From a virus (taxonomy: Duplodnaviria; Heunggongvirae; Uroviricota; Caudoviricetes): 44,978 nucleotides of DNA. The position numbers were made by a program. The stretch covers positions 1 to 44,978 of IMG/VR virus record IMGVR_UViG_2703718817_000009, one strand, 5' to 3'. Below, piece by piece: positions 21,001 through 24,000 of the stretch. Each line of letters starts with the position of its first letter. Positions within the stretch are counted from its first letter, which is position 1.

Positions 21001-24000
21001 CGGACTGATACCATGCCTTACGAGCGTGAGGATCCATATCCTCATCTTCGGAAGATGGTGGTTTTTCCAGCAACGAAGTTATCAAATCCGTCAGGAGATA
21101 CAGTTTTTTCTTTTCATTACTGCCTGGTGCAAGAGGAACATCCGCCATTCTGGCGGCAACAGTCTGCCGGTGCAGACCTGAAAGGGCTGCCAGTTGATTA
21201 ATATTTAACTTCATATTTTTCAGCTCGCCGTCCATTTACATCCCTCCACATAAACCGCAGAACAGAAGTGACTCTGTTTTTTTGTAAAGAAATGCCGCCA
21301 TATAAAGATGTCGAACAAAAAACAACCACAATCATCATCTTTTTAATACTAACAGCATTAAAAACAACAAGTTACCATCATGATGATGATGACGATAAAA
21401 TCACAAAAATGCGCCTTTTTCCGCGCCGCCCGCCCCGTGTTCAGGCCCACCCCACCAGGAGGACCCGCAAAATGATAATGGTTATCATTTGTAATGTAGT
21501 CCGGTTTCTTCCACCATCGCACCGGACCAGCGACTATGAGGGGACAACGCCGCGCTCCGTTAACGCGGTAAACCCCGGTGTGTATCGTTTTTGATTATCC
21601 CCGCACACTCGCGCAGAGGAGTCTCCCTGTCGGGCTGCGGTCTCTGTTAATGAGGGAATACAGCGACGATACGGCGCATCCGCAAAACTTAGTTCAGGCA
21701 CTGAGTGCGGATATAGTCCTGTGCCCCTTCCAGCTGCTTCTGCATTGTCATCAACCGTTCTCTGAGGATGAAATAATCCCGTTCAGCGGTGTCTGCCAGT
21801 CGGGGGCCGGTTGCATTATCCACGCCGGAGGTGCCGGTGGCTTCACGCACGGTACCGGGGCAGGTGGCGTTGATCCGCAGGCGCTTACGACCAGCGGCAA
21901 CATCAGCACGCAGAGTTTCATTTTCAGCTCTCGCATCAGCTAATTCCCTTGAGTATTTTGCATCGAGCGCAGCAACATCGCGCTGGCGCACCTGCATATC
22001 AGTAATGGTTGCGTTTGCCAGCTCCAGCTCTCTGGCTTTTTTATCGCGCTGCGCTTTGTAGGTGATGGCGTTATCACGGTAATGATTCAGCCCCAGACTA
22101 AGCGCACCACAGGCCACCAGCAGGGCAATGATGACCACACACAGAACGCGGTTCATTTCACCACCAGCGTATCTGACCGATGAAATAACCGGAGACCATA
22201 ATCACAAACACCAGCCAGATAAGAATGAACTTCCAGGTAGATAATTTTTCAGCCATCACTCAAATCTCCCGAATCAGTTTGCTAAAATCAAACACACTTT
22301 CTCCTTTGACTTTTCCGGAGTCAGGAAACACAAAACCCCACCTGCTGCTAACAAACGGGGTTTTTACTTTTATTCACTTAGGTTTTGCCAGTTCGCAGGA
22401 TTTCGTGTTATCCGTCCGCGTTGGCCAACGTCATTTTTCAGCAAAATATTCTGCTTATCTGTCGATTCCCCAGCACGCCAGCGCGCTCTCCTGGTCACGA
22501 CGGGATATCTGGCCGTAACAGTTGTTTGAGCGGATACGGCAGTCTCTGCCACCGTCCTTAATCCACCAGCGAATCGCTTCACACGCTCCCCTGCGATCGC
22601 CTGCATTAATTCGTTTATAAAACGTCGACGGGAAACACTTACCGGGGCCAATGTTATACGGGCAGAATGACGCGATCCCCGCTTTCTGGGGTTCAGTCAG
22701 TGGCACTTTGATGTTTTTCTCCACCCATGCCAGCGCCTTATCACGCTCAATGGCGTTAACCCGGTCGCATTTCCCCTTCGACAGCTTCATGCCAGGAATA
22801 ACAGGCTTACCATCCACCCGGGTGGCTCCACGGCAGATGGTCCAGATACCCGCGCCATCACGGTATGCCGTGGTGTGGTTACCTTCTTTTTCATCCAGAA
22901 ACTGGTCGAGAATATCAGGCGCAGGCGCCCCTGCGGCAATCAGCGCCAGAACGGCAGCCGACAGGCCGTATTTGATTTTGGTGTTCATGGATATTTATCA
23001 GGATTTATCGGTTCCGAATCCCTGGATATGTTAAGCCTTCACCCCACCAGTGGTGGGCACTGGCGGGTTCTTAATTTCCCCGGATGATCGTGGATTACAT
23101 TCCACCAGGAGATTACTTATGCTTATCTATCCAGCGGCAGACCTCCGTTTACAGGGACGCAGAGCACAACCATGGGATAAAACAACCACTCATAAATATC
23201 GTCCCGGTCAATATTATGACTTTCGTAAACACCCGGAACTGATCGAGACACACCTTGAGGATTTTGTTGAATATTCAGACAGACAAGCGATTCAGACCTT
23301 TTTTTCTTTTGTTAAGTGGATCAACAGCAGTTCATCTGCATTCGAGAGCACGGACTGCATGTTTTCAGGAACACCAAAGGTTGATGAATACGCCCCGGTA
23401 TTTGGTTGCACCCATGCGTCATCTGGCCGCTTCGAATTTTTGTTTCGCGATACGAAAATAAACCAAAATGAGCGAGCTGTCGGATGGGTACTTAACAAAC
23501 TATCGCTCTACCTTCAGAAAGAACGGCCCGATTTTTGTAAAGGAACCTTTGGCATCGTTCCCCTCATGACGGAATATACCGACTCCGGCGGTAACGAGTT
23601 CACCGGTTATCGTATTTGTGTCTATTTCGATGCTTACGGGAATGGAACAGAGGATACCTGGACTTCTCTCAACATCATGTTTGATGGCCTCATGAAAGCC
23701 ACCAAAAGAATGAGCAATGAAACAATCACTGGCGAGATGCGTCCCCTTTAAAAAATTATCCAGAATCTCACTATTTGCAGAGCGCTCTCTGTTTTTTTGA
23801 ATACGGAAACACTCTGCGAGATTTCTGCTCATCACTTTCCGGCAATAATCGTCAAACGCAGCAAACTGCTCATCGCGGCGTTTGTTTGCATCTTCAGAAG
23901 GCATCAGCGCCGACAGTTTTTTATTCAGTTCAGCAATTTCATTTTCCAGACGACTGAAGCGCTGATTCATTTCTTCATGGTTCATCACCTACTCTCCCCG

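Follow-up and report, generated by a model that had tools for sequence, protein, structure and literature searches.

Sequence comparison points to a mobile cassette of two antisense overlapping genes in late operons of lambda-like prophages

Can one stretch of a phage lysis region encode two different proteins, one on each strand, or is a long open frame opposite a gene a product of chance? This question is raised by the interval between the holin and endolysin genes of a Caudoviricetes virus (Duplodnaviria; Heunggongvirae; Uroviricota) recorded in IMG/VR as IMGVR_UViG_2703718817_000009, of which positions 1 to 44,978 were analyzed here; we refer to this whole stretch of 44,978 nucleotides as the window. 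An earlier reading, made from the sequence alone, had described in this interval an antiparallel pair of open reading frames (ORFs) whose 3' ends share 252 bp, with their codons in exactly complementary register. It offered two interpretations: either both ORFs are genuine genes that overlap, or a truncated late gene was lengthened by the insertion of a moron. Each captured part of what the comparison with relatives indicates. The overlap appears as a conserved dual-coding region across about 25 diverged lineages, in agreement with the first interpretation, although the minus-strand ORF of the window is also chimeric. The chimera involves a remnant of a DUF1327-family gene, in agreement with the second, but the extension of that remnant corresponds to a gene of its own and not to junk read-through. 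Below, the plus-strand gene is termed A and the gene encoded opposite its 3' end is termed B.

The antisense frame of gene A in the window and its relatives

All the features described for the ORF pair by the sequence-only reading were present. Gene A (23119..23751, plus strand; 210 amino acids (aa); stop codon TAA at 23749-23751) lies against the late operon, which occupies the minus strand in the window. It has its own AGGAG Shine-Dalgarno (SD) sequence 7 nt 5' of the ATG (23107..23111, plus strand), which is kept in the related locus L049, and its own intrinsic-terminator-like hairpin (23777-23792) followed by seven T residues (23777..23799 in all, plus strand). The latter falls inside the N-terminal coding part of B, at about codons 65-70 of the minus-strand ORF. 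This late-operon ORF (23500..23985, minus strand) encodes 161 aa from an ATG at 23983-23985, which begins 4 nt past the holin stop, or 162 aa (to 23988) from a GTG at 23986-23988. It ends with a TAG at 23500-23502, and its GGAGAG SD (23992..23997, minus strand) is located within the last holin codons. The ORF aligns with L002, L003, L004, L049 and the protein P0158, and is listed in RefSeq as the hypothetical protein WP_001457151.1.

The overlap (23500..23751, both strands) pairs codons 128-211 of A with the last 84 codons of B, stop codon included. The register is exactly complementary ((23500-23119) mod 3 = 0), with codon positions 1, 2 and 3 of A pairing with positions 3, 2 and 1 of B. The codons TTA, CTA and TCA, which would close the antisense frame, occur six times in A (codons 11, 53, 72, 83, 101 and 128) and are absent from codons 129-211. 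The earlier count of six in the first 127 codons is thus corrected to five, the sixth (CTA, codon 128) being the complement of the stop codon of the minus-strand ORF. Based on alignments with L003, L004, L049 and L051, the A/B cassette extends over approximately 23062..23800 on both strands: to its left lies sequence common to intervals between the holin (S) and endolysin (R) genes that carry other cargo, and at its right edge the homology to loci with a free-standing B stops.

Taken by itself, the open antisense frame in the window could be due to chance. When synonymous codons were shuffled, an open run this long at the 3' end had P = 0.07 (0.22 for such a run anywhere in the gene), and shuffling only Leu and Ser codons gave P = 0.11. 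These values weigh against reading the frame as a gene from the window alone, and its significance therefore rests only on the comparison with relatives. There, the same-register antisense frame is open over the last 82-98 codons of A in every phage-borne homolog examined, covering three clades from Enterobacterales and Pseudomonas, and the open run continues past the A stop codon. The exceptions are a prophage remnant (L005), in which the frame is not open, and one doubtful case, a Salmonella P22-like prophage. The A proteins of the three clades are only 35-55% identical to that of the window (35-65% for the homologs overall); clade 1 includes a Symbiopectobacterium member and clade 3 is Pseudomonas.

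The way in which the frame is kept open is consistent across these lineages. The antisense stop is found at the Leu128 codon or at most 14 codons from it; this codon is always CTA or TTA, and it forms the antisense stop in clades 1 and 2. TTA, CTA and TCA account for 13 of the 21 Leu and Ser codons upstream (codons 1-128) in L010 and for 15 of 25 in L047, versus none of the 10-16 downstream. The explanation that the frame is open for want of Leu and Ser codons in the C-terminus of A was considered and rejected, as each lineage has 10-16 such codons there. Shuffle P values for single lineages ranged from 0.11 down to 0.0001, and, summed over 17 lineages, the overlap contained 0 antisense stops versus 47 expected (the minimum in 200 randomisations was 30).

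In relatives, B encodes 89-107 aa ending in ...GPFYL(K/Q/E)(I/V)x(R/T), an end that a few lineages extend by a short stretch. Each lineage has an in-frame ATG (GTG in L068) located 3-21 codons past the A stop, preceded in most lineages at 5-9 nt by an SD (AGGAG, GGAGG, GGAGAG or GAGG) and in a few by a weak one; the SD and start are present even though the clades differ in the sequence around them. The genes on either side (the tail genes K/I and J, or the holin and the endolysin) share the strand of B in nearly all B-bearing loci, with A opposite. Distant A homologs outside late operons lack B: in L075 and L076 the frame is interrupted by antisense stops, in L081 it is open but has neither a start codon nor the conserved C-terminus, and L077, at 66% G+C, has no discriminating power. 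Searches of proteins, families and PDB profiles found no relatives of B outside A loci. Judged by these sequences, B is taxonomically narrower than A, which fits a de novo origin. In two tail-region loci (L010 1328-1498 and L011 1259-1432), the B frame is open for 66-69 codons more upstream of its SD and ATG, overlapping the 3' end of tail gene I in another frame; this additional opening is probably chance.

Selection on B was assessed by a randomisation in which synonymous codons were re-drawn from each lineage's own usage while the A protein was fixed. In the overlap, identity in the B frame was 0.358 versus 0.243 under the null (z = 25), and the BLOSUM62 score per site was 1.65 versus 0.62 (z = 22). 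In the control region, the antisense frame of codons 1-127, the BLOSUM z was -0.8 and 101 stops were observed versus 67 expected; the identity z of 4 there, versus 25 in the overlap, results from shared ancestry, which the null ignores and which weighs against taking the z values at face value.

The synonymous sites of A, whose comparison across related prophages the earlier reading had proposed as a check, proved constrained in the overlap only. Synonymous divergence (pS, the proportion of synonymous differences) was 0.75-0.95, that is, saturated, in codons 1-127, and within clade 1 it fell to 0.42-0.69 in codons 129-210 with the nonsynonymous proportion (pN) unchanged; pairs involving two Salmonella lineages showed no consistent drop. 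Estimates by the Nei-Gojobori method (NG86) for all pairs across clades were blunted by saturation, and we therefore used within-clade comparisons and codon-identity tests. At conserved A residues, the fraction of identical codons was 0.45-0.76 in the overlap versus 0.30-0.63 outside it in all three clades (P<0.01 for many pairs), and it was not raised in the overlap in nine control pairs that included the B-less or doubtful lineages L005, L008, L075 or L076. Similarly, the 10 codons of B that lie outside A (codons 2-11) differ within clade 2 by 0.325, 0.20 and 0.45 at the three codon positions, which is a coding pattern.

The two genes also decay separately. In an E. coli prophage (L049, 5001-5614), A is a pseudogene with a 214-nt deletion and a net 4-nt deletion, and B is intact at 104 aa with an AGGAGG-ATG start. 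In L005-L007, which lie outside any late operon, A is intact and B is frame-shifted and interrupted by stops. Overall, the comparison shows purifying selection on both frames, and, as far as aligned relatives can tell, B is very probably a selected coding frame in this family. The leftover 111-aa fragment of A in L049 is filed in databases as a "hypothetical protein" (P0008).

The fused late-operon ORF of the window

By alignment, the minus-strand ORF of the window is an in-frame chimera of a DUF1327-family module and B. Its first part (about aa 1-62; 23801..23985, minus strand) comprises a coiled coil and a KRRDEQFAAF(Y/D)DYC module, and residues 2-70 match PHROGs 36381, 15975, 1085 and 2091. 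The earlier statement that neither product belongs to a known family is thus upheld for A and for the B part and does not extend to the N-terminal 65-70 residues of the minus-strand product. The second part (about aa 63-161; 23500..23800, minus strand) is assigned to B by the family alignment, by the selection tests and by its identity of 86% and 76% to the free-standing 104-aa proteins P0158 and P0159. The DUF1327 Pfam domain (PF07041) itself had no match in the window ORF, which has in common with DUF1327-family proteins only the C-terminal module that follows the domain; the proteins of L002 and L004 match the domain at E 7.5e-34 and 6.6e-40.

The relatives indicate how the fusion was formed. 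The ORF of P0158 (from L051/L052) follows an S21-type holin at a distance of 4 nt, carries the same GGAGAG signal and has no DUF1327 part, and P0159 is the B of L049. In L049 and L004, the preceding DUF1327-family gene ends in ...RRDE(Q/L)FAAFYDYCIEVTRRNFVK.FEE.KS(L/I)Q with its own stop codon. In the window and in L002, a form from an Stx1a phage, the end of the DUF1327 gene, the spacer and the first few codons of B have been lost, leaving an in-frame junction near residue 62 (...AECFRIQ, then KNRERSANSEILDNF, then LKG...). The L002 form (263 aa) retains the DUF1327 domain proper, which the 161-aa form of the window lacks.

The sequence-only reading had held that the pair would be contradicted by related prophages in which the minus-strand ORF ends at a conserved stop before the overlap. 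Such an early end literally occurs in L004 and L049, but in L049 B restarts at its own AGGAGG-ATG, and the early stop of the preceding gene therefore does not refute the overlap. Likewise, since the B part has its own ATG in relatives (L049, L051/L052) and the module has its own stop in L004 and L049, the extension in the window is not an accidental read-through into junk.

In the window itself, B has no start of its own: AGT is found in place of the clade-1 ATG, and the start of the 104-aa form has been deleted. B could thus be real in the family and a recently stranded relic here, its deletion-fused chimera being non-functional or not made. Close-range substitutions among the E. coli sequences (window, L051 and L049) point the same way to the extent that they do not clearly favor B, although the changes are too few and those on the L049 branch look A-like. 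Both observations weigh against a working B in the window. On the other side, the reading frame is intact across the fusion, which is coupled in translation to the holin through the GGAGAG and the ATG 4 nt after its stop; the same junction has been retained in two architectures, of 161 and 263 aa; at least 80% of the 1-kb region is found in 132 of 5426 complete E. coli genomes; and comparisons of the window with clade 1 still show the drop in synonymous divergence. We regard a dead relic as unlikely and lean towards the fusion being translated in the window. An in-frame GTG-ATG at 23830-23835 (minus strand; codons 51-52 of the fused ORF), with GGAA upstream, is a possible internal start that would yield an almost pure B product of about 110 aa.

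Gene A and its settings as cargo

A is a real member of a large, widespread, uncharacterized and unnamed protein family. Full-length homologs (about 210 aa) were found at 65, 64, 53 and 53% identity, an exhaustive search returned 228 clusters at E<1e-3, and a profile search returned 109 at E<1e-5, including sequences from Pseudomonas, Acidobacteriota, Planctomycetota and Xanthobacteraceae. All of these are described as "hypothetical", and none has a Pfam domain. A is under purifying selection, with pN far below pS. AlphaFold2, given an alignment of 76 sequences, predicted an alpha/beta fold with a predicted local distance difference test score (pLDDT) of 94.3 and a predicted template modeling score (pTM) of 0.91. 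In this model the overlapped C-terminus (strands 142-154 and 160-174, helix 177-203) is integral to the predicted fold.

The profile and structure-prediction searches proposed with the earlier reading returned no family or fold match for A or B, whose model had a pLDDT of 37.8. For A, sequence, profile and fold searches found no relative in Pfam, PHROG, NCBIfam, PADLOC or the PDB. In profile searches of PDB sequences with the A and B alignments, the A3 alignment had 0 matches and the A9 alignment had one, to an antibody heavy chain at E 0.003, which is not meaningful. PADLOC returned 0 matches for A, B and 12 A homologs, and Pfam and NCBIfam likewise returned none for components of defense or toxin-antitoxin systems.

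The placement of A is that of a moron. It is oriented opposite to both flanking late genes, has its own SD and terminator-like hairpin, and varies in presence and position: L003 and L004 hold other cargo at the same spot, and A/B are found elsewhere between tail genes I and J, between K and I, and before the holin. As mobile cargo, A occupies the holin-endolysin interval in the window, the tail I-J or K-I intervals in many lambda-like prophages, and integrase-bearing islands in distant phyla. Loci of A were searched for by profile scans of genome contigs, the first of which found none and the second 4 loci. A tblastn search of clade-1 A against GenBank phages matched only 8 Stx-phage records, so the cassette is carried by no studied phage.

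Several A homologs have neighborhoods worth recording. In the Salmonella P22-like prophage (L008, 6001-6660 and 9618-11257), a homolog is located between Q and the holin, about 3 kb from the Kiwa pair KwaA/KwaB; its B frame is open, with a divergent sequence and no synonymous constraint. In Salmonella chromosomes (L005-L007, 3713-6633), an intact A homolog lies beside a Cu/Zn superoxide dismutase gene (sodC-type) and a lone minor-tail-gene remnant. The distant B-less homologs (L077 3918-4751, L075 1082-2578 and L076 3724-5049) are found in mobile-island, conflict-type neighborhoods, which contain a metallo-beta-lactamase-fold protein with an anti-Pycsar Apyc1 match, a dCMP-deaminase/HATPase_c_4 protein, and an AAA_14/DUF4143 ATPase beside an integrase.

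The genes that flank the cassette in the window form a lysis cassette of the phage 21 type, in which a class II holin (S family) precedes an endolysin of the lysozyme family. The holin (S21-type, pinholin family; 23989..24204, minus strand; stop codon TAG at 23989-23991) is supported by PF04971 (E 1.7e-32), PHROG holin matches, and the holin annotation in LC567824 and RefSeq. The endolysin (lysozyme R, the downstream late gene; 22455..22988, minus strand) matches PF00959 (E 6e-24) and PHROG 7, and lies about 0.5 kb from the end of the minus-strand ORF; its signal-anchor-release (SAR) character is judged solely from the hydrophobic N-terminus MNTKIKYGLSAAVLALIAAGA. Over 1.9 kb, the lysis region shares 99.5% identity with that of the Stx2a-converting phage Stx2_499, whose record annotates the minus-strand ORF only. 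Directly upstream of the real holin start, at 24243-24272 (minus strand), there is a strong terminator-like hairpin with a 13-bp stem followed by TTTTATTGTTG; it falls inside a spurious 96-aa extension of the holin ORF. Farther away, three consecutive tRNA genes (Arg-tct, Arg-tcg and Met-cat; 28672-28923, minus strand) are found just upstream of a 319-aa ORF (27622-28581). Such an arrangement would be expected around stx in a phage that converts its host to Stx production.

The S-R interval of lambdoid and Stx phages with S21-type holins is a cargo hotspot, repeatedly holding a late-strand and an opposite-strand gene (L003 2217-3187; L004 2201-3044). In PhiR5_1, it contains a DUF1327 gene and an 86-aa gene labeled DUF1823 in a convergent overlap of 53 nt, and in Stx2_12E129 it contains genes of 214 and 104 aa that do not overlap. 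RefSeq annotation of the interval is inconsistent: among many other records, NZ_CP028379 (2387816-2388301) and NZ_CP028116 (2201921-2203223) illustrate a treatment that varies between the minus-strand ORF only, a pseudogene described as "DUF1327, missing C-terminus", and nothing. The two E. coli genomes inspected closely carry no annotation for A, and most E. coli matches were listed without an annotated feature over the region. Protein databases include B only in cases in which A is disrupted or truncated by the end of a contig.

Proposed origin, competing explanations and known systems

We propose that A and B form a mobile cargo cassette of two convergent genes with 252 bp in common. A would be the older gene, inserted backwards into strongly transcribed late operons together with its own SD and terminator. 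The antisense strand of A would thereby have become part of the late mRNA, and B (about 90-105 aa) would have been overprinted on the antisense of the last 83 or so codons of A, in the branch living in the late operons of lambda-like prophages. Being on the late-gene strand, B would be read from the late, Q-antiterminated transcript. In the window, a deletion would have fused B in frame to the preceding DUF1327-family remnant, such that B is made as a 161-aa chimera coupled to the holin stop. A would be made from the other strand, presumably in the lysogen, and B late, and convergent transcription over the 252 bases in common would make the expression of A and B mutually antagonistic. Judged from the alignments and locus comparisons, this structural and evolutionary account of the cassette as a whole is probable, its proposed function being a separate matter.

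What the cassette does can be suggested tentatively at best. A may be a lysogen-expressed cargo or defense-type protein that late antisense transcription silences while producing B as a late-phase partner or antidote, a scenario we consider possible, though the odds are against it. In a more specific and rather doubtful version, the cassette would be a self-contained switch between lysogeny and lysis: A would be an exclusion or defense factor harmful to its own phage, and induction would silence A and produce a B that neutralizes or replaces it. Since the register is exactly complementary, B would be hydropathically complementary to the C-terminal strands and helix of A and so could bind them directly. 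This sense-antisense complementarity is only a lead; if the switch operates in this way, it would provide a natural example of the long-debated idea of sense-antisense peptide recognition.

Further points weigh against this account. The products of A and B are predicted from sequence comparison. The AlphaFold2 model of B has no confident fold, although its alignment of 3 close sequences makes this result uninformative. No sigma-70 promoter site for A passed a scan of 22900-24350, in which weak candidates were seen only by eye. The defense, antidote and antisense-silencing functions rest on context, with no PADLOC match and one homolog that adjoins Kiwa.

A different explanation for the conserved frame is that something besides the B protein preserves it as translatable, or preserves the RNA, for example a need for ribosome cover against polarity or mRNA decay, or a role as an antisense RNA regulator of A. 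Such a role would suit the restriction of B to loci in which A is embedded against a late operon, the absence of a predicted fold in B, and the free replacement of its N-terminus (an own ATG, a 14-aa extension, and fusions of 62 and 164 aa). However, avoiding three codons would suffice for an open frame, which leaves the conservation of B residues and the general synonymous constraint unexplained, and B spans only about 40% of the antisense stretch. Lambdoid late transcription is Q-antiterminated and so largely Rho-resistant, which counts against polarity. We consider this explanation improbable.

Lower still is the probability of a chance shadow ORF, in which a moron came to rest beside a truncated DUF1327-family gene and the late ORF reads through the complementary frame to the first stop. 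Long spurious ORFs arise most readily in the same-register antisense frame, the window-alone P values of 0.07-0.11 are compatible with one, the minus-strand ORF is demonstrably chimeric with no modeled fold for its extension, and RefSeq treats a related ORF as a truncated DUF1327 pseudogene. The comparative data nevertheless strongly disfavor it as an explanation: about 25 lineages, with A identities as low as 35%, keep the frame open behind an SD and an ATG of its own; antisense stops number 0 where 47 are expected; the constraint on synonymous sites and on B-frame amino acids is limited to the overlap; and a free-standing B is found directly after the holin (L051/L052) and beside a dead A (L049). 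Finally, the notion that only the minus-strand ORF is a gene and the plus-strand ORF is spurious, which could appeal to the annotation of the minus-strand ORF alone in LC567824 and NZ_CP028379, is refuted by full-length homologs of A in many phyla, its model at a pLDDT of 94, and its occurrence without B.

An overlapping pair of this kind would matter for several reasons. Few antisense overlapping protein genes of bacteria and their phages have good support, and they are often contested, the usual evidence being the expression of young, poorly conserved ORFs. The support for A/B differs in that the overlap has been maintained through deep divergence, with stop avoidance, a conserved start, synonymous constraint and natural decay controls. 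B is also directly testable: turning any Leu codon of A into CTA or TTA, or any Ser codon into TCA, would knock out B and be silent in A. Such genes escape standard gene callers, and RefSeq is inconsistent in whether it annotates A, B or neither. Here, a two-protein cassette is placed inside the lysis region of Stx-converting phages. The proposed history also offers a plausible route of de novo gene birth, whereby a cargo gene that enters a highly transcribed operon in reverse orientation automatically presents its antisense strand to ribosomes.

Antisense overlapping genes have been reported in E. coli O157:H7, an enterohemorrhagic E. coli (EHEC), where nog1, laoB, asa, ano and others were found by RNA-seq and Ribo-seq (PMC4683798, PMC5810103, PMC6294744, PMC5960689, PMC9927249), and in Pseudomonas aeruginosa (olg1 and olg2; PMC8850804). 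The evidence in these cases is mainly expression-based, and most of the genes are young and taxonomically narrow according to their authors (PMC4683798, PMC5810103, PMC6294744, PMC5960689, PMC9927249, PMC8850804). B resembles them as a protein ORF antisense within an older gene, apparently arisen by overprinting and missed by pipelines that forbid long overlaps. In contrast to them, A/B are known from sequence comparison, which is unusually deep (three clades, from Enterobacterales to Pseudomonas, at about 35% identity in A); the overlap is convergent at the 3' ends, with the B start outside A; and the pair travels as a mobile cassette in phage late operons.

Phage morons such as bor and lom of lambda are similar to A, a supernumerary gene that runs against its neighbors, has an SD and a terminator of its own, is present or absent among near-identical phages and occurs at varied sites. 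The classical moron, however, is a single gene, whereas A/B adds an antisense gene of the surrounding late transcript, and the promoter scan found no passing site for A. A precedent for the proposed working model is the sieB-esc-sas system of P22 and lambda, which is said, in work by Ranade and Poteete from 1993, to combine an exclusion gene with a means of self-protection (Esc) and with an antisense transcript (sas), through which expression is switched in the phage's own lytic growth. There, esc is an internal product that shares the strand and frame of the exclusion gene, and the sas RNA encodes no protein, whereas B is a different protein on the opposite strand and the functional link between A and B is only proposed.

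Within the lysis region of lambdoid phages, the Rz/Rz1 spanins likewise derive two proteins from one stretch, but Rz1 is encoded in the +1 frame of the same strand and its function is known, whereas the A/B overlap is antisense. DUF1327 (PF07041) and YdfR-type proteins of the S-R interval share with the minus-strand ORF the post-holin position and their C-terminal coiled coil and RRDEQFAAFYDYC module, which make up its first 62 or so residues; the window form differs in having no DUF1327 domain and in the replacement of the natural C-terminus and stop by B. A search of the literature on DUF1327, on antisense overlapping genes in prophages and on morons between holin and endolysin found no description of the A/B pair. 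Antisense overlapping genes that arose by overprinting were thus known before; new here are the A/B family, the depth and cleanness of the comparative evidence, and the architecture of a mobile cargo cassette whose two genes follow opposite transcriptional programs of a temperate phage.

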